In this document: positions 1,593-15,511 of the stretch, piece after piece
Position numbering within the stretch: position 1 is the stretch's first letter
How the letters are laid out: each line of letters starts with the position of its first letter
From: an uncultured Candidatus Saccharibacteria bacterium
GTDB lineage: Bacteria > Patescibacteriota > Minisyncoccia > Phycocordibacterales > UBA918
Assembly: GCA_964402035.1 (NCBI GenBank)
Contig: CAYOAM010000003.1
Coordinates: 162,657 to 226,656 of the forward strand
DNA: 64,000 nt
Reading direction: 5' to 3'
Position numbers and translations under genes: made by a program
Notes under the pieces: generated by a model
What the model saw: the letters and a program-made list of their open reading frames with translations, nothing else
The model's database searches: none
Told to the model about the DNA's origin: nothing

Positions 1593-3002
1593 CTAGTACG
1601 GTGTCGAAGACGCTGGCGTTGAGGTCCCAGCAACTTCAGCTTCTGGCAGTGTTGCTTCAGTACTCGAAGCTACAGCAACTGTCGATGTGGCGACTTCAAC
1701 AGACACCGGCACTTCGCTCGTAGGCGAAATGAGTTGCTCAGTCATAATCAGCATGTCGCGGATGAGTTCCCGTGCTTCTTTTGCTGCTACTTCCGCATGT
1801 GCGAGCGTCTCTTCAGTATGTGAAAGTGCAGCGTCAATAATAACAATATCCTTCAGCACGATATCCATACCCGTTCCTATTTTAGTAATCAAACCATCGT
1901 CGGTTGATGACGCCATGCGCGCACGAATAATTGCGATACTCGATGTTGCTTCAGCGGTAAACGATCGCAGCGCATCTTGGCGTTCTTCGTCGGTCAATAT
2001 TTTTGGTACCAATTCCTCAAGTGTTACTGAGCGGCGCACATCAATATCCGTCATGAATGCAATAATTTTTTGCGTATCTCCAAGCACCTCCTTCAATTCC
2101 TTTATAGCTTCTATTGCATCGCCTGATTCTTGCAGCTCACGCACATGCCCTACTCGGCGCCCAATATCTTCCAATCGTCGAGAAATATCTACGCGCTCAT
2201 CGTCTGAGACCGCCGTATTGATCGTCATGAACAACTCATGAGCACGAGTTGTTTCTACTTCGACTTCAGCAGAAAAGCGCTCATACGAGGAGAGCGTCGG
2301 TTCATCAGCATTCTCCACACGCACAATCTCACGCGCATCACGCACGGTCGAGGCGAGCATTTGTATCTGCACATCTTCTTTGGTTGTTGATCCGTGGCCA
2401 GTTTCCAACACTGCGCTCTGCACATCGAGAGCGGATTCCAACACAACCTGCGCAACCGCAGCCTCATCGGCATTGTTTTCACGCAGTGTAGCTAGCTCCT
2501 TTTGTGCGGTAGCCGCATGCGCTTTCACCGTTTCATTTATTTGTGCCTCAACAACATCAGTCAACTTCCCTTCCTTCGCCAATAGCCGCGCTTCAGCAAT
2601 GCGCCGTTCTACACGACGTGTCTCCCACACCACTTTTTCGTATGAAGAAAATGATAGCGATGCATACGCTTCTTCATTGACATGAAGCTTCACCGCATAC
2701 AGCGTCTCGCCAGGCACCGCGCGTTCTGCTGCAAGCGGCACACTCGCTACGAGCAGTATTGCAAAAGCTCCCGCCGTTATGCGCGCAGACCATGACTTAA
2801 GACCAACATGTATATATGAAAATTGTTCTGTATAAGCAGGCGCTGGTTCTTTTGCTTTTATTTTTTTAGGAGTTTGGAACGACACTGGCAGCGGATGATA
2901 CTCCATGTATGAAATGATACGTTCACGCAACAAATGACTCTCCGCTTTTTTTAAGCGAATCTTTTGTGCTGCGTGAGTAATTTTTTTCTCGAATTGTTCC
3001 AT
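1593..3002 (-). CDS. Putative anti-sigma factor / membrane-anchored coiled-coil protein (DUF5667-like)
   Basis: Sits immediately downstream of the ECF sigma gene with a 6-bp gap. It has a single N-proximal TM helix (AGAFAILLVASVPLAA) followed by a long Ala/Glu-rich helical region. Confidence 0.4.
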   Translation of the reverse strand: MEQFEKKITHAAQKIRLKKAESHLLRERIISYMEYHPLPVSFQTPKKIKAKEPAPAYTEQFSYIHVGLKSWSARITAGAFAILLVASVPLAAERAVPGETLYAVKLHVNEEAYASLSFSSYEKVVWETRRVERRIAEARLLAKEGKLTDVVEAQINETVKAHAATAQKELATLRENNADEAAVAQVVLESALDVQSAVLETGHGSTTKEDVQIQMLASTVRDAREIVRVENADEPTLSSYERFSAEVEVETTRAHELFMTINTAVSDDERVDISRRLEDIGRRVGHVRELQESGDAIEAIKELKEVLGDTQKIIAFMTDIDVRRSVTLEELVPKILTDEERQDALRSFTAEATSSIAIIRARMASSTDDGLITKIGTGMDIVLKDIVIIDAALSHTEETLAHAEVAAKEARELIRDMLIMTEQLISPTSEVPVSVEVATSTVAVASSTEATLPEAEVAGTSTPASSTPY

Positions 3003-3008
3003 GAAATG

Positions 3009-3563
3009 TTACGGCGTCCCTGTGATCATGTCGCGTAACACTTTCATGCCACGATTGATCCGTACTGAGACCACGTTTTCTGTTTCTTCAATGAGTACCG
3101 CTATCTCTTTTGGGCCAAGTCCATCTACGTACCTTAGTGTCAAAATCTCACGATAGACGAGCGGCATTGTACCTATAACTTCGATGATTCGTTTTGCATC
3201 GAGCGCCGCCAATGTCTCCTCGAGTGACCCTTCCGCTAGATCGGAAAACCGTCCACTGTCCATCCCCTCTTCTTCCAACAGTGCGTCGAGCGACTCTGTG
3301 CGACGTCTGCGATACTCGTCAATGATCAGGTTACCGAGGATTTTGTAGAGGAATGGTCGATATGTCTCAACCACATTTCCCCCACGTACGTACCCCCAAG
3401 CTTTTGTAAATGCATCATGCACGAGCTCTATTGCCCGCTCATGATCAGATACACGTATGACCGCATGCCGATACAACGCATCAGCATAATCATCAAACGC
3501 TTTCAAAAAACGTTCTTCGTGGCTCCCCGCTGCCTCGTTCGCTTTTAACGTTCGTTTGGCCAT
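3009..3563 (-). CDS. ECF-type RNA polymerase sigma-70 factor
   Basis: Sigma-70 region 2 (YRHAVIRV...DLVHDAFTKAW) and region 4 (PLVYREILTLRYVDGLGPKEIA) motifs, ~180 aa. Confidence 0.85.
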   Translation of the reverse strand: MAKRTLKANEAAGSHEERFLKAFDDYADALYRHAVIRVSDHERAIELVHDAFTKAWGYVRGGNVVETYRPFLYKILGNLIIDEYRRRRTESLDALLEEEGMDSGRFSDLAEGSLEETLAALDAKRIIEVIGTMPLVYREILTLRYVDGLGPKEIAVLIEETENVVSVRINRGMKVLRDMITGTP

Positions 3564-3762
3564 GTGGAACCATTATATATAAAGACGTACGAGAGTACGA
3601 ACCCTTTCAGTGCTTAGGAAGCACAAATGGGGAAAATACAAGGTTTAGCGAAATTAACCGTTTTATGTGCAATCATTGAGTTTGTTCTTAGGGTTTGGGG
3701 GATGAATCTAAGCCTATTTATTTTAGAAAATGGCTTTGTTGAAGTGTTTTTATGGTTTTAGC

Positions 3763-3791
3763 TTGACATTTTAGTTAGATATGACATTATA
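3763..3791 (+). promoter_or_regulatory. Sigma-70-like promoter (TTGACA-17-ATTATA) for the 3817 gene
   Basis: Perfect -35 TTGACA at 3763-3768, a 17-bp spacer, then -10 ATTATA at 3786-3791. An RBS AGGAAAGG lies 6 nt before the ATG at 3817. Confidence 0.55.
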
Positions 3792-3816
3792 AAAGCAGGA
3801 CTGGTTCTAGGAAAGG

Positions 3817-4161
3817 ATGGACAAAATGATACGCGCGACCATTCAGGGTTCGTTTTCGGGTCAAGCCGTAATCGACGCCGTTAAGGCCGTTGCTGAAGAA
3901 TTGTATCTAGTTGAGGATGGGTTCGACGATGGCCCAACAAAGACTGTGGGGCAGCGTTCCAATGACCCGCACAAGCACATCATCGTGCTAGTGGATTCCT
4001 CCGATTCAATTCACCCGAAGAGAAAGTATTCCGTGGTTACCGTTCAACATCATGGTTGGGGTGGTAGGGTATTCGCCATTGAGCCCACAGCTGAATGCAA
4101 AATTCAGGAGGTCAGAGACTTTTGCAGCAGACTCTCTGCCTATTTGAATTTGAACCCTTGA
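3817..4161 (+). CDS. Hypothetical protein (114 aa)
   Basis: ORF with its own promoter, RBS and a strong downstream terminator. Confidence 0.55.
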   Translation: MDKMIRATIQGSFSGQAVIDAVKAVAEELYLVEDGFDDGPTKTVGQRSNDPHKHIIVLVDSSDSIHPKRKYSVVTVQHHGWGGRVFAIEPTAECKIQEVRDFCSRLSAYLNLNP

Positions 4162-4176
4162 TTTTCGATTTTCACC

Positions 4177-4229
4177 CGCCCAACCCCAGAGATCGCCCGA
4201 TCTCTGGGGTTGGGCGTTTTCTTTTTTTG
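4177..4229 (+). terminator. Strong Rho-independent terminator
   Basis: 19-bp perfect stem (cgcccaaccccagagatcg / cgatctctggggttgggcg) with a 2-nt loop, followed by ttttcttttttt. Confidence 0.85.
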
Positions 4230-4571
4230 TATAAAGACGTGAGTTTTAGAGGGAACGGGGCCGAGTAATCGGTCACAACTCTCGCTTCGCTCGGTCGCGA
4301 CCCCGCCTCAGCGCTGCATCCCGCCCCGCGGGCGCGCTTGCGGCCTTCGATTCTCGGACGGAAAGCACCCCGTGCTTTCCTCACCCAACGAAAATACTGC
4401 GTATTTTCGGGGCGCTAGATCGTCCCCAAAATTCTAACTAAAATCAGTACTACGTCTGATTTTAGCTAAGATTTCTGGACGGCGACTCGAATATTGCACT
4501 GAAAAGTGCAATATATACTGCGCCGCTTCGATTCTCGGTCGAAAGCTTTGCTTTCTCGCACCTCACTTCGT

Positions 4572-4642
4572 TCGGGGCGCCGAGAATCGAACTCGGTCTA
4601 TCTGGTCCCAAACCAGACGTACTACCGGTATACTACGCCCCG
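4572..4642 (-). tRNA. tRNA-Pro (anticodon UGG), CCA not encoded
   Basis: Manual fold of the minus strand. Acceptor CGGGGCG / CGCCCCG with C1:G72 and A73 (Pro-typical). D-stem GTAT/GTAC, anticodon stem TCTGG/CCAGA, loop TTTGGGA, T-arm CCGAG-TTCGATT-CTCGG. 71 nt. Confidence 0.8.
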
Positions 4643-4842
4643 TATATATTTATTTTACATTAAAACCAGGCCTACCGGTCCGCTAGCTGGCGGAACTACG
4701 CCCTGTATATTTGATGTAGCCACTATCCTAACACGGCACAATAAAAAAGCGAAGAAATTGGCTAATTCTCAAGCATATAGAGCATAAAGGTCATAATGTC
4801 CTTTATGCTCACCCACTATTCTATTTACAATACTTCCCATTT

Positions 4843-5856
4843 GTTACACGTGAAACTACTGATACCGTCACAAAATTCTAGTTTATTTTTGAAAATTTCT
4901 TCACAAAGATATAGTTTCACATGGAACACTATTAATTACAATACAAAAATCACTCCATGATCACATTATCAATAATCCGAATAGTAGCTTTTCTCGATAC
5001 TGGATCAATTGCCACAGCCGCAACATCAAGCTGCCAATCCCCTTTATATTGATTTTTAGCAATCCATACTTGGATAGTGTTGTAGACTTTTCTCAATTTA
5101 TCCCTATGTACATTGTCTTCTGGTCTGTATGTTCCATGTGAAACATTATATTTAGAAATATTTTCCCCCATTTCACGTGAAACTGTCTTAACTTCAATGA
5201 AATGAACTCTTCTATCTTTTTCTAAAATGATGTCAATTTCTCCTGTTTTTGCCCGAAAATTGGATTCAATATGAGAAAAACCTTGCCTTTTGAGATGGTT
5301 CCACGTGGCAATTTCGCCTTTCCTACCCAGAGTCATCTTTAAAGTTTCCATAGTGTACTAGGTAAAGTATATCCAGTAATAGAGTTTTCTGTTGCCAGTA
5401 TGCACAGTTCCATGTGGAACAGTCAGATAATACTGACCTATTCAATTATGTAAGAAAATACTTGAATAGAACTTACTTTCTACTCATTCAAAATGAAACA
5501 CTGAATTCACTTTGGCATGTTTCATGTGTAACATGTTCCACGTGGCACACTTATTTATAGAAACCTTATTTTAAGCCATTTTATAAAATTCAATGTCTTT
5601 TATATTTGTCCTTTATACACATATCCACTGACTTATACACAGGTGGAAATTTGTCTGAAAAAGTCATTTCCACAGTCTGTACAGCTGTTTTGCAGAGGAA
5701 ATCAAGTGGAAATTCACAGCGTTGTACCCAAAAATTACCTCCACTTGTGGATAAATAGGGAGGACGTGTATCTAGTTTCATGTGGAACTGGATTTATTCG
5801 TCTTTTAGTAGAGTTTTGGGGTCAGGTTCGTAATTCGTTTCATCTTTCAGTGAAAC
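4843..5856. repeat. Cluster of ~10 copies of a 14-bp palindromic motif GTTYCAYGTGRAAC
   Basis: Copies at 4843-4856, 4914-4927, 5131-5144, 5170-5183, 5298-5311, 5407-5420, 5519-5532, 5535-5548, 5775-5788, plus an interrupted copy at 5837-5856. Spacing is irregular. Copies lie both inside and flanking the YraN-like gene. Confidence 0.7.
4950..5351 (-). CDS. YraN/UPF0102-family predicted endonuclease
   Basis: ~130 aa with the characteristic 'KTGEIDIILEK...VHFIEVKT' core of the UPF0102 (YraN) family. Confidence 0.65.
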   Translation of the reverse strand: METLKMTLGRKGEIATWNHLKRQGFSHIESNFRAKTGEIDIILEKDRRVHFIEVKTVSREMGENISKYNVSHGTYRPEDNVHRDKLRKVYNTIQVWIAKNQYKGDWQLDVAAVAIDPVSRKATIRIIDNVIME

Positions 5857-5963
5857 TCATAACGACCTCCTCCCCGGACTCGTGGTTTTTGCACTAGGCA
5901 AAAACATCGCTCCGTCTCACAAAACGCAAAATACGAGACGTTGGTCTCGTATTTTGTCTGTTT

Positions 5964-5986
5964 TGTGCGGGCAGGGGGAATCGAAC
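5964..5986 (-). repeat. 23-nt exact duplicate of the tRNA-Gly 3' end (T-loop to discriminator +2), att-like
   Basis: tgtgcgggcagggggaatcgaac is identical to 6110-6132. Upstream context (TAGAG instead of GGGGG) cannot form a T-stem, so this is a fragment rather than a second tRNA. Confidence 0.75.
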
Positions 5987-6111
5987 TCTACGAGTTCGGT
6001 ATGGTCTGTCGCTATTTTGTTTTGTCTAGGACTCACAAAATTGCTGGCAGACCCTTCGATTCCCGGCAAAAAGAAGGCTTTTTGCTCCTGCAGCCAAATA
6101 CTGCGTATCTG

Positions 6112-6182
6112 TGCGGGCAGGGGGAATCGAACCCCCGACTCATCCATGGCAAGGATGTATTCTACCACTAAACCATGCCCGC
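6112..6182 (-). tRNA. tRNA-Gly (anticodon GCC), CCA not encoded
   Basis: Manual fold. Acceptor GCGGGCA / TGCCCGC, anticodon stem CATCC/GGATG, loop TTGCCAT, T-arm GGGGG-TTCGATT-CCCCC. 71 nt. Confidence 0.8.
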
Positions 6183-6313
6183 TTTGTGAGACGATTATAC
6201 TACATCACCCAACATAATCCAGCGTTTAAATATGCTGTGCGCTATATTTTAATAAATTGACTAATGTAGATATTGCTGTAGATTGACGCCTAGGTTCAAT
6301 CCAAAATAGGGGA

Positions 6314-6949
6314 GTGGCGATGAAATCCAACGCAGAAGCAATCTCCAGATTTGTACGTGATCTGGAGGTAAAACTTGACCTTGCGTATGCGGTTCCAGGA
6401 CACATACTATTTCAAGACTTTCAGCTTACTCCAACTGCGGAACCTATGGGAGTCGTGGAGATCTTGTACAACTCATGGAAGAGACTTGCACCTCCTGAAC
6501 AATCCCGCGCGACTGACCTTGTTGCTGACACCCTCACATGTTGTGCTGCGGTGTACACGAGAACGAATTTCGATGTCACCATAGTCCTTTTGGATTTGGC
6601 ATATGCCATCAATCCAAAGCTGGTGCCCAGAGATGTGCTCCGTACCCTCTTCCTTCGGCCATCGGGGCTTCCTCATGAAGAAGCGGTACATCCGGTATTT
6701 CTCGGCCGGCTTATGAGTAGCATGATGTCGAAAAGTCTTAAGAATCCGCTAACCAACGACGAGTGGGCTTGGGTCGGAAGTCACATCGAACTACTTTCTC
6801 TTGACAAGCTAATCTACTACACGAGAAAACATCCCGAAATCGACGTTGCTTCAGTTCTGAGACGGCGAATTCAGGAAAATAGATCTACCTTTTTTGTATT
6901 CGGGGAAAATCCCGACGTACTTCTTGAGTTGCTCTCAAAAGCCGCCTGA
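6314..6949 (+). CDS. Hypothetical protein (211 aa)
   Basis: Clean ORF between the tRNA-Gly and tRNA-Arg loci. No recognisable motif. Confidence 0.5.
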   Translation: MAMKSNAEAISRFVRDLEVKLDLAYAVPGHILFQDFQLTPTAEPMGVVEILYNSWKRLAPPEQSRATDLVADTLTCCAAVYTRTNFDVTIVLLDLAYAINPKLVPRDVLRTLFLRPSGLPHEEAVHPVFLGRLMSSMMSKSLKNPLTNDEWAWVGSHIELLSLDKLIYYTRKHPEIDVASVLRRRIQENRSTFFVFGENPDVLLELLSKAA

Positions 6950-7057
6950 CAGGCTCCCAATCGGGTGCCTGTTTTTAAATTCCAATACGCTCGCAAATGT
7001 TGTCCTGCTTTGCCCATGTATGAAAAAACAACGCCCATGCGTTGTTTTTTCTCATGT

Positions 7058-7079
7058 GTGCACCTGTCAGGACTCGAAC
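7058..7079 (-). repeat. 22-nt exact duplicate of the tRNA-Arg 3' end, att-like
   Basis: gtgcacctgtcaggactcgaac is identical to 7199-7220 and lies ~140 bp downstream of the intact tRNA. Confidence 0.75.
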
Positions 7080-7163
7080 ATTACATGTTCAGTTCAGGTT
7101 GTATGATAATTTCTTCCATTGGTCGAAATTATCGACAACCTTTTCGAGTCCATGGGCCTGAAA

Positions 7164-7190
7164 TAAAAAACCGGCATAAAGCCGGCTTTT
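7164..7190. terminator. Bidirectional hairpin (aaaaaaccggc-ataaa-gccggcttttt)
   Basis: GC stem flanked by an A-tract and a T-tract, between the tRNA-Arg gene and its duplicated 3' fragment. Confidence 0.55.
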
Positions 7191-7199
7191 TATTTCAGG

Positions 7200-7271
7200 T
7201 GCACCTGTCAGGACTCGAACCTGAAACGTCTCGTCCGAAGCGAGATATGATATCCATTTCACTACAGGTGC
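7200..7271 (-). tRNA. tRNA-Arg (anticodon UCG), CC encoded, terminal A not
   Basis: Manual fold. Acceptor GCACCTG / CAGGTGC, D-stem GTGA/TCAT, anticodon stem TCTCG/CGAGA, loop CTTCGGA, T-arm TCAGG-TTCGAGT-CCTGA. Confidence 0.75.
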
Positions 7272-7288
7272 ATGTGACACTGAGCTTA

Positions 7289-7978
7289 CTACCCTTTCAT
7301 TAAATATTCAAACTGCATTGATTGCCAAAATTTCATTTGACAAAGAAGCGCGTGGCTCTTAGGTACCTCTATACGAAGACACCCAATGTACCCTGGGCGT
7401 TTTTTAACGCCCAGGTTTGTTGGTTTATATACAGTTTTAACAAATTGTGCTTCTGAAACTCCAAGCTTTTTCATCCAAAGTGCCTCGAGATGTTCGTGTG
7501 CGTATGGTTTGTGAATATACAACCGATATCGCAAGGTTATACGCTCTCGTTGTACGAATTTCTCTAACCAATGAATCATGACGAGCGCCATTTCATAGTC
7601 AGAATTCGTGAATAAAAATTGATTATGTCGCCGTGCTCCCTCAGCCCAATACAACGCAATCCCGATATGAAATAGGGGATCATCCTTATACTGCTTAAAA
7701 ATTGTTTTTGCGGAAATAAAATACTCTTTTTCGCGGATAAGTCTGTTTCGCCTATGCACCGCACCTGCACGTATACGACCTCTTGTAATATTGCCCTCTT
7801 TTCTTTTTCTCAGAAAGATCTTTTCTTCGGCAGTTAACGGAAAATCTTTCAACCAGAGCGATAGGGAACTTTTCGACACCAAAACCTCTTTTAGAATTTC
7901 TTTGTAGCTTAAGCCCTGTCTTCTCAATTCTATTGCTCTATTTTTTTCTATTAGTTTAGGGACCATGTTACATTTCAT
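7289..7978 (-). CDS. Hypothetical DNA-binding protein with N-terminal HTH; possible LAGLIDADG-like endonuclease
   Basis: N-terminus 'ELRRQGLSYKEILKEVLVSKSSLSLWLK' resembles a resolvase/transposase-type HTH. 'HIGIALYWAEGARR' weakly resembles a single LAGLIDADG motif. The gene ends 18 bp from tRNA-Arg. Confidence 0.35.
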   Translation of the reverse strand: MKCNMVPKLIEKNRAIELRRQGLSYKEILKEVLVSKSSLSLWLKDFPLTAEEKIFLRKRKEGNITRGRIRAGAVHRRNRLIREKEYFISAKTIFKQYKDDPLFHIGIALYWAEGARRHNQFLFTNSDYEMALVMIHWLEKFVQRERITLRYRLYIHKPYAHEHLEALWMKKLGVSEAQFVKTVYKPTNLGVKKRPGYIGCLRIEVPKSHALLCQMKFWQSMQFEYLMKG

Positions 7979-8040
7979 AATAACATGGTTCGAACACCAG
8001 TCGAGTAGCTAAAATGCAAAAATGGTTCTAGAATGACGGT

Positions 8041-9519
8041 ATGTCAATGATAGTCCGCAGCGAAATTCCGAAAGAAGTACTCTTTGTCGCAGACACGCTC
8101 GAAGCAGCGGGTTTTGAAGCATACCTCATCGGAGGCTGCGTGCGCGACATCTTAATAGGGAAGCGACCAAAGGATTGGGACATCACCACCAATGCACGTC
8201 CAGAAGAAATAACAGGACTCTTTGTGAACACCTACCAGAACAATGATTTTGGCACGGTGGGCGTCGTCAACGACGAAACGACTGACGAGACGCTCAAAGT
8301 AGTCGAAGTCACTCCATATCGCGTAGAATCAAGCTATTCTGACGCGCGCAGACCTGATTCTGTCTCATTTAGTACTTCAATTGAGGACGATCTCAAACGC
8401 CGCGACTTTACCATCAACGCTATTGCGTATCGCCCTAGAAACGAGGAATTTATTGATCTGTTCGAAGGAATAGGGGACTTAAAGGCAAAACGACTCCGCG
8501 CGGTAGGTATTCCGCATGACCGCTTTGCTGAAGATGCTCTCAGGATGATGCGTGCCGTTCGACTTGCGGTCGAGCTTTCATTAGTTATTGATGGTGACAC
8601 GCTGACCGCCATAGCGGGCAACGCCGAAAACCTAGGTCGTATATCGAAAGAGCGCATTCGAGACGAGTTTATCCGTATCTTGCAATCGAAGCAGCCCATG
8701 CAAGGCATTATTTTCCTTGAAAAGCTTGGCCTTTTGCCCTATATCGCTCCTGACCTCCTCCGGGGCATCGGGGTCGCGCAAAACCAAGCCCATGCTTTCG
8801 ATGTATACGAGCATCTCCTGCGCACCATGCAGCATGCTGCAGACCAAGATTGGCACTTTGATATCCGCCTTGCAGGACTTTTTCATGATATCTCAAAACC
8901 TGAGACTCGACGCTGGTCCGATGAGAAGAAAGATTGGACGTTTCATGGGCACGAAGTGGTTGGTGTACGTGTAACAAAAAAAGCGCTTGAAGCACTCAAG
9001 TTTCCACGTGAAACGATGGATCGGGTCCTAAAACTCGTACGCTGGCACATGTTTTTTTCAGACCCGGATCAAGTCACTCTTTCTGCCGTACGTCGGACCA
9101 TACAAAATGTGGGGGAGGAGAACGTGTGGGATCTATTAAAACTCCGTATTTGTGACCGCATCGGCACGGGGCGACCAAAGGCACAGCCATTTAGACTCCG
9201 CAAATACACTGCGATGGTGGAAGAAGCACTTCGCGACCCAATTAGCGTCAAGATGTTGAAGATTGATGGGGCAAAAATTATGGAAATTAGTGGGGAAAAG
9301 CCCGGGCCAAAGCTTGGTCATGCCCTCCATGCACTCCTCGAAGAGGTACTTGAAGATCCAAAGGTAAATACGGCTGAATACTTGGAAAAGAGAGCGGCAG
9401 ATCTTATGAAAATGCCTATTGACGCACTTAAAGCTCTTGGTGATAAGGGGAAGGATAAGCAGCGATTAGAAGAAGAAGGTGCAATCAAAGCTATCCAGAG
9501 AAAGCACCATGTAGCCTAA
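8041..9519 (+). CDS. cca: CCA-adding tRNA nucleotidyltransferase (PolyA-pol head plus HD domain)
   Basis: 'LIGGCVRDILIGKRPKDWDITTNARPEE' nucleotidyltransferase motif, 'RDFTINA' motif, and a C-terminal HD domain (HAFDVYEHLL...FHDISKP). Confidence 0.85.
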   Translation: MSMIVRSEIPKEVLFVADTLEAAGFEAYLIGGCVRDILIGKRPKDWDITTNARPEEITGLFVNTYQNNDFGTVGVVNDETTDETLKVVEVTPYRVESSYSDARRPDSVSFSTSIEDDLKRRDFTINAIAYRPRNEEFIDLFEGIGDLKAKRLRAVGIPHDRFAEDALRMMRAVRLAVELSLVIDGDTLTAIAGNAENLGRISKERIRDEFIRILQSKQPMQGIIFLEKLGLLPYIAPDLLRGIGVAQNQAHAFDVYEHLLRTMQHAADQDWHFDIRLAGLFHDISKPETRRWSDEKKDWTFHGHEVVGVRVTKKALEALKFPRETMDRVLKLVRWHMFFSDPDQVTLSAVRRTIQNVGEENVWDLLKLRICDRIGTGRPKAQPFRLRKYTAMVEEALRDPISVKMLKIDGAKIMEISGEKPGPKLGHALHALLEEVLEDPKVNTAEYLEKRAADLMKMPIDALKALGDKGKDKQRLEEEGAIKAIQRKHHVA

Positions 9520-14534: not shown

Positions 14535-15455
14535 TTACCTCCGTCCCTTTCCATGAAAGTTTTTATGCACTTCGCGCAAGTGTGCATCGGTAACGTGGGT
14601 GTAGATTTGGGTCGTCGCTATGTTCGCGTGACCTAACAGTGCTTGGACGGAGCGAATGTCGGCGCCATTGCCCAGAAGGTCCGTGGCGAAGCTGTGCCGG
14701 ATAATGTGCGGCGTGACCTTGCGAGTGATGCCCGCTTTGATCGCATACTGCTTTACCGTACGCTGCACCGCGCGTACCGTGAGTCGCAATTCCTTCGTAT
14801 TTTTCGCATTTTTTCCATACTGCACAAACATCGCATCATCCATATCTTTGCGTACCTTGAGATATTCTTTGATCGCATTTTTTGCGGTAGGGGAGAGAAA
14901 GACAACCCGTACCTTGTCGCCCTTGCCGCGCACCGAAAATTCATCACGAGAGAGATCCACATCATCAGTCGAGAGTGCGCAAAGCTCAGAAACACGTAGC
15001 CCTGTTGAAAAAAGGAGTTCGAGTATCGCGCGATCACGGAGACCCTGTGTCGTTTTAGCATCGGGCGCCGCCAAAAGGCGTTCGAGCTCGGCTTGGGTGA
15101 TAAGGTCGAGAGATCTCTCACCGACTTTCGCAAGCTCAATACGTTCAGGAGAAACTGACTCAATGCCGCGTTTGCGGAGAAACTTTAAAAATGCGCGGAG
15201 TGCTATGAGGTAGTAGTTCTGTGTACGTCGCTTCATCGTCTCGACATTGCGCCCGACTTTGGTACCCGCTTGCCTGTTGAGCCAGACACGATACTCACGA
15301 ATCATGCTTTCCGTGATATCTCCCGGATCTTTTATTTTTGCATATACCACAAAACGCTCCAGGTAATGCCCATAGTTGTCGATCGTTTTTGCACTGCGAC
15401 CCTTTTCAATTTCAAGATACTGCAAAAATTCTCGGATACCTTCAGTAATAGTCAT
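14535..15455 (-). CDS. xerC: Tyrosine site-specific recombinase, XerC/XerD family
   Basis: C-terminal catalytic motifs 'GLRVSELCAL', 'HIIRHSFATDLL', 'LLGHANIATTQIYTHV', plus an N-terminal SAM-like domain. Probable start is the Met at 15455. Confidence 0.85.
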   Translation of the reverse strand: MTITEGIREFLQYLEIEKGRSAKTIDNYGHYLERFVVYAKIKDPGDITESMIREYRVWLNRQAGTKVGRNVETMKRRTQNYYLIALRAFLKFLRKRGIESVSPERIELAKVGERSLDLITQAELERLLAAPDAKTTQGLRDRAILELLFSTGLRVSELCALSTDDVDLSRDEFSVRGKGDKVRVVFLSPTAKNAIKEYLKVRKDMDDAMFVQYGKNAKNTKELRLTVRAVQRTVKQYAIKAGITRKVTPHIIRHSFATDLLGNGADIRSVQALLGHANIATTQIYTHVTDAHLREVHKNFHGKGRR

Positions 15456-15511
15456 ACGACTATTGTACGCTGCATCACAAGCGTCGCACAATATGGTAGA
15501 GTGTTTGCACT

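Follow-up and report, generated by a model that had tools for sequence, protein, structure and literature searches.

Three intact tRNA genes, for Pro(UGG), Gly(GCC) and Arg(UCG), lie on the reverse strand in the first 8 kb of the window (the whole 64,000-nt stretch of DNA analysed, from contig CAYOAM010000003.1), and each is followed downstream by short, hairpin-rich sequence carrying copies of the tRNA's own 3' end. The genes for tRNA-Gly and tRNA-Arg were identified with ARAGORN and score 68.5 and 63 bits against the Rfam tRNA model, respectively. An earlier note on this sequence had reported that both are "shadowed" by an exact 22- to 23-nt copy of their 3' ends, and this observation is confirmed. 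TGTGCGGGCAGGGGGAATCGAAC occurs twice at tRNA-Gly and GTGCACCTGTCAGGACTCGAAC twice at tRNA-Arg, with start-to-start spacings of 146 and 141 nt. Each copy runs from G53/T54 of the T-loop to 1 to 2 nt past the discriminator, as the note had stated. The features of the region are listed in the table below.

Features of the tRNA-Pro, tRNA-Gly and tRNA-Arg region and of two nearby genes (window coordinates; X_L, proximal copy of the tRNA 3' end; X_R, shadow; T', inverted copy of the T-loop and 3' T-stem; P1 to P3, helices of the predicted three-way junction; CM, covariance model; L numbers, loci of relatives)
Position	Strand	Feature	Evidence
14535-15491		XerC-like gene, Xer-type recombinase	Synteny in 89 sources; model scores
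7289-7978		HTH gene	Weak HTH hits only
7198-7271	-	tRNA-Arg(UCG), intact; its last 22 nt (7199-7220) are X_L	ARAGORN; Rfam tRNA 63 bits; exact direct repeat
7157-7199	-	hp1, terminator-type hairpin directly abutting tRNA-Arg (19-nt arms, T-tracts on both sides); brought in with the insertion, by analogy with L085 versus L001	Inverted repeat, 95% complementary; terminator scan; L085/L001 comparison
7143-7151	-	T' (Arg), GGACTCGAA on the tRNA strand; 5' strand of closing stem P1	Sequence; minimum-energy fold; CM alignment
7080-7142	-	Type-A core (Arg): junction AAAG, long hairpin P2 (about 7096-7141), junction GAACT, hairpin P3 (about 7076-7090) with loop TGTAA; the 3' strand of P3 runs into the shadow	CM hit 7055-7156(-), 79.4 bits, E 1.4e-18; fold z-score -4.7
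7058-7079	-	X_R (Arg), exact 22-nt copy of the tRNA-Arg 3' end; positions 57 onward are the duplicated target, and GTTC doubles as the 3' strand of P3	Repeat and mismatch searches; CM alignment
7011-7062	.	Bidirectional terminator hairpin after the Arg shadow; also ends the convergent ORF 6320-6949	Inverted repeat; sequence
6111-6182	-	tRNA-Gly(GCC), intact; 6110-6132 is X_L	ARAGORN; Rfam tRNA 68.5 bits; exact direct repeat
6066-6085	-	hp2 (Gly), hairpin GCAAAAAG-CCTT-CTTTTTGC just upstream of T'; a degenerate inverted copy of the acceptor 3' strand (GCAGG) lies before it	Sequence; a hairpin occupies the same position in many relatives
6055-6064	-	T' (Gly), GGGAATCGAA on the tRNA strand; 5' strand of P1	Repeat search; comparison with relatives; minimum-energy fold
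5987-6054	-	Type-A core (Gly): P2 and P3 of the three-way junction	CM hit 5962-6068(-), 98.8 bits, E 7e-24; fold z-score -5.1
5964-5986	-	X_R (Gly), exact 23-nt copy of the tRNA-Gly 3' end	Repeat and mismatch searches
5918-5965	-	Original terminator of tRNA-Gly, now displaced behind the shadow; homologous to the terminator directly following tRNA-Gly in L098, which has no insertion	Inverted repeat; terminator scan; local score 50 and direct sequence comparison with L098
5818-5918	-	Second, older unit behind tRNA-Gly: type B/C-like core (CGGAGCGATG..GAGTCCGGGGAGGAGG..TTATGAG..GAATTA), no recognisable third shadow	nhmmer type-C profile E 0.002 (5826-5902) and type-B profile E 0.039 (5873-5916); support weak to moderate
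4572-4642	-	tRNA-Pro(UGG), intact, followed by two decayed units	ARAGORN; Rfam tRNA
4405-4571	-	Proximal unit behind tRNA-Pro: hp2 (4541-4555), T' TTCGATTCTCGG (4527-4538), B/C-like core, degenerate shadow TTCGGGGCGC.. (4405-4425)	Inverted match; sequence; comparison with type-C cores; assigned by eye, no profile hit
4253-4404	-	Distal unit behind tRNA-Pro: hp2 (4360-4380), T' (4346-4357), type-B core, degenerate shadow (ACCGATTACTCGGCCCCG, about 4253-4272)	nhmmer type-B profile 4266-4356(-), E 1.7e-10; inverted match

To exclude chance matches, we searched the window for both repeats with up to 3 mismatches. Each pattern occurs only twice, against 0 expected in 100 shuffles, and there is no third, distal copy. 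The earlier note had also placed a hairpin terminator in each spacer, which is only partly right: the Arg spacer has a terminator-type hairpin with a T-tract, whereas the hairpin in the Gly spacer has no T-tract on the tRNA strand and was not called in a terminator scan. Three features had been missed, namely the inverted copy of the T-loop and T-stem (T') in each spacer, tRNA-Pro with its two decayed units and the further B/C-type core after the Gly shadow. The spacers (119 to 123 nt, without an ORF) are not random: T' is followed by a 60- to 70-nt core, and T' pairs with the shadow to close a predicted three-way junction, the last helix of which (P3) ends at T-loop position 56.

We next asked whether this layout recurs in relatives. 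The closest cca gene is 77% identical among genomes and 81% among metagenomes, so that comparisons had to rely on other close relatives rather than on contigs of the same species. In 161 Paceibacteria-type loci, 78 of 389 tRNAs (20%) have a direct copy of G57-N66 within 450 nt downstream and 66 (17%) have an inverted copy, while the upstream control is 2 of 405 (0.5%) for each. These data come from the neighbourhood of one gene (cca) and from four tRNA species in metagenome-assembled genomes. The inverted copy precedes a direct copy in 38 of 39 cases, with a median gap of 91 nt. The earlier note had named collapsed reads and tandem tRNA duplicates in relatives as observations that would count against it, and neither was borne out. 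The same architecture, with arms specific to each locus, is found in dozens of independent assemblies from different studies and assemblers, and the repeats are only 22 to 23 nt and embedded in unique sequence. One locus (L097) does have four identical tandem cores and a chimeric junction that could reflect assembler behaviour, but an assembly artefact as the general explanation is highly improbable. Likewise, ARAGORN and the Rfam tRNA model find only the three intact tRNAs in the window region, no tandem tRNA duplicates are found in the spacers, and the shadow carries only positions 53/57 to 74, so that it is not recognisable as a degenerate tRNA.

To obtain more information on the fold, we analysed covariation among related cores. 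RNAalifold gives a three-way junction in which 22 of 28 pairs show double changes. In 37 type-A copies aligned with the covariance model, 93.6% of cells are paired against 70.5% in shuffles (0 of 500), with 206 double-change cells against 64.5, and slid controls give 33% to 48%, although a model-derived alignment leans towards the model's structure. Positions equivalent to T54/T55 of the shadow covary with their P3 partners (AU 23, UA 11, CG 2). A second class of cores, type B, also forms a predicted three-way junction and has two invariant G·U pairs. On the tRNA strand, G·T outnumbers A·C 30 to 15. Both window copies fold into this structure as the minimum-energy fold.

Relatives show clean empty and filled sites with breakpoints exactly at the repeat. 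tRNA-Gly is empty in L051 and L053 and filled in L115, L043 and L045. tRNA-Pro is empty in L045, carries a unit E2 in L115, units E1 and E2 in L044, and E1 alone in L051 and L053. In each case, the native trailer follows the shadow, and the same holds for type A (L085 versus L001) and for the window's own tRNA-Gly compared with L098. In L044, the newer of the two units lies next to the tRNA, showing that repeated insertion at one tRNA does occur, and older units decay, as seen for the degenerate shadows behind the window's tRNA-Pro. However, mobility is inferred only from comparative presence and absence, and loss by recombination between the direct repeats would give the same empty sites; no enzyme, circular form, excision junction or transcript has been seen.

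The earlier note interpreted the repeats as att cores of tyrosine-integrase islands, left as mini-remnants by repeated integration and excision or marking an active tandem att arrangement, and possibly served by the XerC-like recombinase or the HTH/LAGLIDADG-like gene abutting tRNA-Arg. This interpretation is partly supported. The repeats are insertion-flanking duplications of the tRNA 3' end with their left edge in the T-loop, which is the geometry of tRNA att sites, and the block from the T-loop to the 3' end is reportedly typical of T-loop-sublocation integrases (Williams 2002). In addition, tandem accumulation with newer units next to the tRNA resembles what is described for tycheposon islands (10.1101/2020.12.28.424599), and tRNA gene fragments are a known product of element integration (PMC9897764). 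By contrast, the origin of the spacers from larger islands is not supported; they are complete copies of a conserved, covarying structured element. Their narrow size range and conserved, covarying structure are not what random deletion products would show, and T' has no role in that model. No integrase, integrase fragment or cargo was found between the repeats, and no copy of a tRNA 3' end lies 450 nt to 10 kb downstream of any of the 435 tRNAs in 161 sources, apart from one marginal 13/14 match. The only recombinase in the window, the Xer-type protein about 7 kb away, is kept in the same synteny in 89 sources whether or not elements are present and looks like a housekeeping gene; it is neither implicated nor excluded as a partner. 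The HTH protein gave only weak HTH hits in Pfam and nothing in NCBIfam, PHROGs or PDB sequences, and LAGLIDADG similarity could not be shown. Its gene is present in 20 of 161 sources and is uncorrelated with the elements (30% versus 27% of tRNAs carry a copy). The classical att-scar model is therefore largely refuted, and we consider it very unlikely.

Cores that are 80% to 87% identical occur at Arg, Gly and Pro tRNAs in different genomes, and the Arg loci of L007 and L010 share 88%-identical flanks but carry cores of different subfamilies. The hairpin between the tRNA and T' is unrelated between elements with similar cores (r = 0.05), so that the extent of the mobile unit is uncertain, although the pairs compared are too diverged for this to be decisive. 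Such swapping of inner hairpins within conserved flanks could also point to palindrome-driven replication errors. The tRNA terminators of these genomes are long palindromes that include the acceptor 3' strand, and template switching or fold-back synthesis at these hairpins would generate direct and inverted copies of the tRNA end and capture hairpin-rich filler, with no dedicated mobility machinery. Even at the empty site of L098, the native terminator pairs with the last 6 nt of the tRNA, X_L-hairpin-T' forms perfect long palindromes (21/21 in L097; also L115 and L009), and the X / X' / X zig-zag is what successive fold-backs would produce. However, this does not explain conserved core families with specific junction and loop nucleotides shared across many genomes and sites, the fixed junction at position 56/57 across three core classes, or the strong purifying and compensatory pattern, and we regard it as an unlikely explanation.

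The strand-specific structure raises the possibility of a host-serving RNA module in the pre-tRNA 3' trailer. In this view, the T'-core-X junction would be transcribed with the tRNA and act in 3'-end processing, in termination or stability, or as a tRNA-acceptor/T-arm mimic, spreading by duplication and being lost without much cost. The invariant G·U pairs of type B and the G·T excess on the tRNA strand fit such a role, close relatives (L045 versus L115) show compensatory and wobble changes in situ, and type-B units lie between the tRNA and its terminator, so they must be co-transcribed. Moreover, when T' extends into the acceptor complement, the stem reproduces the tRNA's acceptor helix (21/21 in L097; also L001, L010 and L013). 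On the other hand, only about 20% of tRNAs carry a unit, close relatives differ, and units pile up in tandem and decay. The same core occurs at unrelated sites, namely the msrB-msrA spacer and the 3' arm of a terminator, and several unrelated core classes occupy the same position. Most type-A cores sit behind an intrinsic terminator, which argues against strong transcription but does not exclude it, and the window's Arg core is bracketed by two bidirectional terminators. An RNA function thus remains possible but doubtful.

To determine whether the elements belong to a described family, we scanned window positions 3000 to 9000 and loci L007, L044 and L115 against Rfam 15, which includes hammerhead, twister, pistol, hatchet, tmRNA and Y RNA. 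Only tRNAs were found, plus sub-threshold chance hits. Literature searches likewise returned no description. Two type-A core patterns, the only ones scanned against IMG/VR viral contigs, gave 52 loci, none of which was confirmed by the covariance model. Genes next to non-tRNA copies are ordinary (msrB/msrA, YraN), with no recurrent candidate for an autonomous element. A reading of T' as a tRNA primer-binding site was rejected because no TGG complementary to CCA precedes it, and a possible mini-ORF in type-C cores (AGGAGG plus ATG) is not conserved across copies.

Several known systems share part of this architecture. As in tRNA-gene att sites of tyrosine-integrase islands, including tandem arrays and integrase-less derivatives such as tycheposon islands and cis-mobilizable elements (CIMEs), a direct repeat of the tRNA 3' end flanks the inserted DNA, the left edge is in the T-loop, the tRNA is restored by element-borne sequence, new insertions push older ones away and partial tRNA copies are left behind. 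However, the present inserts are 100 to 165 nt with no genes, no integrase lies in or next to them, no full-size relatives occur at these tRNAs, and a conserved three-way junction and an inverted copy of the target are not features of att scars or CIMEs. Integron attC sites and the CTX-phage attP(+) forked hairpin used by XerCD are folded single-stranded recombination sites: imperfect palindromes of about 60 to 140 nt, conserved in structure more than in sequence, whose stem recreates a duplex recombination site with the crossover point at a defined place on the 3' strand, whose function is strand-specific and which encode no recombinase. A Xer-type recombinase is present in the genome here as well. 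With regard to IMEX elements, which exploit Xer at a dif-like site through an attP that mimics the host dif site, only the presence of a Xer gene is shown, and the dif site of this lineage is not in the window. Unlike attC, the elements have no R/L boxes, no GTTRRRY core (T-loop GTTCGAT matches 6/7 only), no Rfam attC hit, no cassette ORFs and no integron integrase, the Xer protein scoring 134.6 bits against a cutoff of 265 for the integron-integrase model. Their paired arms copy the specific host tRNA rather than a family consensus, and the structure is branched rather than a bulged hairpin.

REP/BIME/REPIN elements mobilised by RAYT transposases are also short, non-autonomous, extragenic hairpin-forming repeats placed after genes or terminators, which form arrays of alternating direct and inverted units separated by two kinds of linker and evolve as within-genome populations. 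In REPs, the repeated palindrome is the family-wide conserved part, whereas here the repeated arms are locus-specific and the core, corresponding to the linker, is conserved; there is no GTAG-type tetranucleotide, and no RAYT was seen. MITEs (for example Correia and Nezha) are similar in being about 100 to 150 nt, non-coding and multicopy, with inverted terminal sequences and a flanking direct duplication. Here, the duplication is about 18 to 22 nt of a specific gene end rather than 2 to 10 bp, the "terminal inverted repeats" are copies of the target that differ per tRNA, and no parent IS is known. Finally, small three-way-junction ribozymes of hammerhead topology have three helices around a junction with conserved unpaired nucleotides. 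The C56|G57 element boundary falls at the P3/P1 junction, where a hammerhead cleaves, and copies are patchy and occur in tandem. However, the hammerhead reading was rejected since there is no CUGANGA/GAAA core and no Rfam ribozyme hit on either strand.

Taken together, we favour the view, with a probability of roughly 0.55, that each shadow is the displaced original 3' end of a tRNA gene, at the distal edge of one copy of an apparently undescribed family of short (about 100 to 165 nt), gene-less, non-autonomous, structure-dependent insertion elements that target tRNA T-loops in Paceibacteria/Kaiserbacteria-type CPR bacteria. In this view, an element lies between an intact tRNA and that tRNA's original terminator and reads, in the tRNA direction, as the tRNA ending in X_L, a hairpin (in type A usually an intrinsic terminator), T' (sometimes extending into the acceptor strand), a 60- to 110-nt core, X_R and the native terminator. 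As a single strand, T' pairs with X_R, and the 3' strand of P3 ends at T-loop position 56, exactly the left edge of the duplicated target (G57 to 1 to 4 nt past the discriminator), so that the junction would present a duplex copy of the target's right half next to the insertion point. Our comparisons demonstrate discrete insertion and loss at the repeat, stacking of new units next to the tRNA, decay of old ones, related cores at different tRNAs, core replacement inside conserved flanks and strand-specific covarying structure. The mechanism, by contrast, is inferred: insertion at C56/G57 of the T-loop through a folded single-stranded intermediate, which could be ssDNA in the manner of integron attC or CTX-phage attP, or possibly RNA, catalysed in trans by an as yet unidentified enzyme encoded elsewhere. 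The element would supply a replacement tRNA 3' end, and often a terminator, so that the tRNA stays functional. However, T' and X fit each host tRNA, and a simple cut-and-paste or integrase model does not explain how a core reaches a new tRNA species with matching arms.

A more speculative and, on present evidence, unlikely possibility is that the cores are a new class of mobile nucleic-acid element moving as a folded single strand, either as an ssDNA hairpin-junction substrate for a host recombinase or as a small, hypothetically catalytic RNA cleaving and ligating at the P3/P1 junction. Such an element would dock into tRNA T-loops and other hairpin loops, with its closing stem templated from each new target, which would explain both the arms that fit every host tRNA and the cores that swap within conserved flanks. 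It would be a tRNA-targeting mobility mechanism with no described counterpart, in the streamlined genomes of CPR bacteria.

CPR/Patescibacteria genomes are small and are thought to carry few mobile elements, yet at one conserved locus roughly one tRNA in five carries one or more copies of a structured, gene-less insertion. The partial tRNA copies and repeats that they create can mislead tRNA annotation, island finders and assemblers, while the three covariance or profile models give a direct handle for a genome-wide census and for finding the enzyme responsible. If these elements are mobile, they define a minimal way to invade an essential gene without harming it, since the insertion brings a replacement 3' end and often a terminator too, and they would use structure rather than sequence as their identity, extending the attC/CTX paradigm to tRNA targets. 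If instead they are RNAs, they form an abundant new family of structured RNAs attached to tRNA transcripts.

The window holds three tRNA genes, for Pro(UGG), Gly(GCC) and Arg(UCG), all recovered by ARAGORN and by the Rfam tRNA model (61-68.5 bits). The earlier note had reported that the 3' ends of tRNA-Gly and tRNA-Arg are each repeated exactly a short distance downstream, and this observation is confirmed: the Gly repeat is exact over 23 nt and the Arg repeat over 22 nt, with each copy spanning G53/T54 to 1-2 nt past the discriminator. With up to 3 mismatches, neither sequence has a third copy in the 64 kb window, and shuffled sequences give none. The note's further claim that each spacer contains a hairpin terminator holds for Arg but not for Gly, where the spacer hairpin lacks a T-tract. 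The features of the window and of the related loci discussed here are listed in the table.

Features of the window and of related loci (designated L followed by a number), with the downstream copy of a tRNA 3' end called the shadow and the inverted copy of the T-loop plus 3' T-stem called T'
Source	Coordinates	Strand	Feature	Sequence
Window	4572-4642	-	tRNA-Pro(UGG)	
Window	4253-4571	-	Two units behind tRNA-Pro (hairpin, inverted T-loop copy, B/C-type core) with degenerate shadows	TTCGATTCTCGG (inverted T-loop copy)
Window	4527-4538		T' behind tRNA-Pro, first copy	CCGAGAATCGAA
Window	4346-4357		T' behind tRNA-Pro, second copy	CCGAGAATCGAA
Window	4266-4356		Type-B unit, profile search (E 1.7e-10)	
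Window	4950-5351	-	YraN/UPF0102-like gene	
Window	4840-5790		Region with at least eight copies of a palindromic motif, around the YraN/UPF0102-like gene	GTTCCAYGTGGAAC / TTTCACGTGAAA
Window	5818-5918 (about)	-	B/C-like core behind the Gly shadow and its terminator, profile search (E 0.002)	CGGAGCGATG..GAGTCCGGGGAGGAGG..TTATGAG..GAATTA
Window	5918-5965		Terminator behind the Gly shadow	
Window	5964-5986		Gly shadow	
Window	6055-6064		T' of Gly	GGGAATCGAA
Window	6066-6085		Gly spacer hairpin, no T-tract	
Window	6110-6132		Proximal copy of the Gly repeat	
Window	6111-6182	-	tRNA-Gly(GCC)	
Window	6320-6949	+	209-aa ORF between the Arg unit and tRNA-Gly	
Window	7058-7079		Arg shadow	
Window	7143-7151		T' of Arg	GGACTCGAA
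Window	7157-7199		Arg spacer hairpin terminator	
Window	7198-7271	-	tRNA-Arg(UCG)	
Window	7199-7220		Proximal copy of the Arg repeat	
Window	7289-7978	-	229-aa HTH protein	
Window	8041-9519		CCA-adding enzyme (cca)	
Window	14535-15491		XerC-like gene	
L097	5340-5740	-	tRNA-Arg followed by four identical tandem type-A cores	
L009	15830-15980	+	Type-A core without tRNA arms	
L083	7996-8069	+	Type-A core without tRNA arms	
L001	18780-19000	-	Type-A core without tRNA arms	
L035	8795-8925		Different insertion of ~50 nt	
L048	7190-7319		Different insertion of ~50 nt	
L059	6185-6320		Different insertion of ~50 nt	
L031	5975-6100		Different insertion of ~50 nt	
L039	612-760		Different insertion of ~50 nt	
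L098	5629-5760	+	Native tRNA terminator, long palindrome	
L088	4649-4755		Core with recurrent hairpin-tip sub-module	
L037	403-474		Core with recurrent hairpin-tip sub-module	
L014	8943-9061		Core with recurrent hairpin-tip sub-module	

Each spacer also contains T', an inverted copy of the T-loop plus 3' T-stem of its own tRNA, and tRNA-Pro, whose units the earlier note did not list, has T' twice together with degenerate shadows. In relatives, the inverted copies track the T-loop variant of each tRNA (GATT, GAGT or GAAT), and they are therefore copies of the target and not a fixed motif.

To identify relatives, we examined the neighbouring genes, which include a CCA-adding enzyme, an ECF sigma factor and a DUF5667 protein. 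Homologues of the CCA-adding enzyme place the window among Paceibacteria/Kaiserbacteria-type Patescibacteria, and the order tRNA-Gly(GCC) - tRNA-Arg(UCG) - cca is conserved in 160 fetched loci. Across 161 sources, 389 tRNAs had enough downstream sequence to be assessed, and of these 78 (20%) have a direct copy (at most 1 mismatch) of G57-N66 within 450 nt downstream, while 66 (17%) have an inverted copy. The same search upstream finds 2 of 405 for each. Inverted copies sit mostly 21-60 nt after the tRNA and direct copies mostly 108-190 nt after it, with a minor class at 51-63 nt, and the inverted copy precedes a direct one in 38 of 39 cases. Recurrence across independent assemblies excludes an assembly artefact as the source of the repeats, although one locus, L097, may be partly artefactual. 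Here, tRNA-Arg is followed by a perfect 21/21 inverted copy of its 3' end and by four identical tandem type-A cores, the last of which is joined to a tRNA-Gly-type 3' end, yet no tRNA-Gly gene is called. This chimeric Arg/Gly junction could reflect recombination between two elements that deleted tRNA-Gly, or an assembly collapse.

Sixteen spacers resembling the two in the window ("type A") align well, and RNAalifold predicts a three-way junction. In this predicted fold, P1 is T' paired with the shadow, the P1/P2 junction is AAGA-like, P2 is a long hairpin, the P2/P3 junction is (T)GTAC(T/A), and P3 is GNNNC-TGTAA-GNNNY, with a 3' strand that ends in the first three nucleotides of the "T-loop" of the shadow. 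A covariance model (R1) finds the two window copies at 98.8 and 79.4 bits and nothing else in the window; in 1.99 Mb of related loci, it finds 57 hits at E<1 in the first 81 sources and 22 more at E<0.01 in the other 80. On 37 aligned copies, 93.6% of pair cells are standard pairs compared to 70.5% in shuffles (0 of 500 shuffles reach this), there are 206 double-change cells against 64.5, and slid controls give 33-48%, with support for all three helices. This alignment was fitted to the model, which favours the structure, but the independent MAFFT/RNAalifold result agrees. The shadow positions equivalent to T54/T55 covary with their P3 partners. The true duplicated block therefore starts at C56/G57, and the extra GTTC that makes the window repeats 22-23 nt long is the 3' strand of P3. 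At the P2 tips of type-A cores, and in type-C cores, a recurrent sub-module, YGAG-CGAAGCG-AA(A) (also TTATGAGCGAAGCGAATTAG), appears at hairpin tips in otherwise different cores, suggesting a shared protein- or RNA-binding motif that is possibly kink-turn-like.

A second class ("type B") is also a three-way junction, with P3 again abutting the shadow (...TTGTGACC|GATTC). It has two invariant G·U pairs, so that the fold is specific to the tRNA-sense strand; in type A, G·T outnumbers A·C 30 to 15 on that strand. The invariant G·U pairs, together with the obligatory co-transcription of type B with the tRNA, favour a host RNA function, which is the chief rival to the insertion-element account. This rival is disfavoured by the patchiness, stacking and decay of the units, by the multiple core classes, and by the terminators in front of type-A cores. 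Profile searches place a type-B unit behind tRNA-Pro and, with weak support, a B/C-like core without a recognisable third shadow behind tRNA-Gly, and types B and C have 50 and 34 hits in 41 and 21 sources, respectively. The 3-kb tRNA region of the window thus holds about five units, with two behind tRNA-Pro (the proximal one assigned by eye only), two behind tRNA-Gly and one behind tRNA-Arg.

Close relatives provide clean empty and filled sites. For tRNA-Gly, L051 and L053 are empty, while L115, L043 and L045 carry about 165 extra nucleotides; the native trailer and terminator (aaagataaactttctaaaaatagatgcc...) follows the tRNA in the empty genomes and the shadow in the filled ones, with an overlap of 18-20 nt. 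For tRNA-Pro, L045 is empty, L115 has one unit (E2), L044 has E2 plus a second unit, E1, next to the tRNA, and L051 and L053 have E1 alone. For type A, the native trailer (acgagcaaaaca...) follows the shadow in L085 (filled) and directly follows the tRNA in L001. In the window itself, the terminator behind the Gly shadow is homologous to the terminator that directly follows tRNA-Gly in L098. So the proximal copy, plus a hairpin, T' and the core, is the inserted material, and the shadow is the displaced original 3' end; equivalently, about 20 nt of target were duplicated. In L098 and many other loci, native tRNA terminators are long palindromes that start at the tRNA end and pair with its last ~6 nt (CCGCAC ... 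GTGCGG). The three window tRNAs encode C74 but not the full CCA, and the gene for the CCA-adding enzyme lies next to tRNA-Arg.

The cores behave as exchangeable units. Cores 80-87% identical occur at Arg, Gly and Pro tRNAs in different genomes, while the hairpin between the tRNA and T' shows no correlated similarity (r = 0.05), although these pairs are too diverged for that result to be decisive. The Arg loci of L007 and L010 are about 88% identical in hairpin+T' and in shadow+flanks, yet carry cores of different subfamilies. Copies also occur away from tRNAs: one lies in the msrB-msrA spacer next to a duplicated msrA 5' end, and others lie in the 3' arm of a terminator, again in the order X - hairpin - X' - core - X. 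In L009, L083 and L001, type-A cores without tRNA arms sit in or near the msrB-msrA spacer; in L009, the core interrupts a duplicated copy of the first ~40 nt of msrA, and the intact gene start follows 25 nt later. A different insertion of ~50 nt (..TTGAC..hairpin..GGAGAAG) lies behind tRNA-Pro or tRNA-Gly(UCC) in L035, L048, L059, L031 and L039, and is flanked by a 22-30 nt duplication that starts in the variable loop or 5' T-stem rather than in the T-loop.

We next asked whether the units belong to a known family or to larger islands. No Rfam 15 family matches, and no copy was confirmed on viral contigs scanned with two type-A core patterns. Apart from one marginal 13/14 match, no tRNA-end repeat lies 450 nt to 10 kb behind any of 435 tRNAs in the 161 sources, so larger islands do not use these sites. 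The earlier note had proposed that the att-like repeats reflect repeated integration and excision leaving mini-remnants, or an active tandem att arrangement possibly served by the XerC-like recombinase or by the HTH/LAGLIDADG-like gene abutting tRNA-Arg. This interpretation is partly right, since these are att-like duplications produced by repeated insertion, but it is wrong on the nature of the insert, and its candidate enzymes are not supported. The XerC-like gene is a Xer-type recombinase conserved in synteny in 89 sources. The HTH protein has only weak HTH matches, LAGLIDADG similarity could not be shown, and its presence does not correlate with that of the elements. It is found in only 20 of 161 sources, always wedged between tRNA-Arg and cca, where other genomes have about 75 nt, and in L006, L010 and L030 a paralogue also lies between tRNA-Gly and tRNA-Arg; it behaves like a sporadic, possibly mobile gene. 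The 209-aa ORF between the Arg unit and tRNA-Gly has no homologue in any of the 160 related loci and no Pfam, NCBIfam or PHROG match, and relatives have only 250-320 nt here, or an HTH paralogue. The palindromic motif around the YraN/UPF0102-like gene also appears at the equivalent place in relatives (for example L002, L045, L051 and L053), and looks like an operator array for an unknown regulator. Literature searches found tRNA-fragment att scars of 9-23 kb elements and tycheposon arrays, but nothing like the units described here. The classical att-scar model is less likely, as is a purely replication-error origin.

The three-way junction places a duplex copy of the target's right half (T'/X) directly against the insertion point (P3|G57). 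That geometry, the strand specificity and the absence of any encoded enzyme most resemble folded single-stranded recombination substrates such as integron attC and CTX attP, which is why we favour a folded ssDNA intermediate acted on in trans. While the empty and filled sites, the recurrence of the units and their covarying structure come from the sequence comparisons, this last step is inferred. The main point left unexplained by this account is how T' and X come to fit each new tRNA, for which the candidate explanations are templating from the target by fold-back synthesis, core-only cassette exchange between pre-existing arms, and slow adaptation of the few T-stem positions. As far as Rfam 15 and the searchable literature show, the element family is undescribed. 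The best-supported account is that of a family of miniature, non-autonomous, structure-dependent insertion elements aimed at the T-loop and 3' end of tRNA genes, which in this view keep the tRNA intact by supplying a new 3' end and, in type A, usually a terminator.
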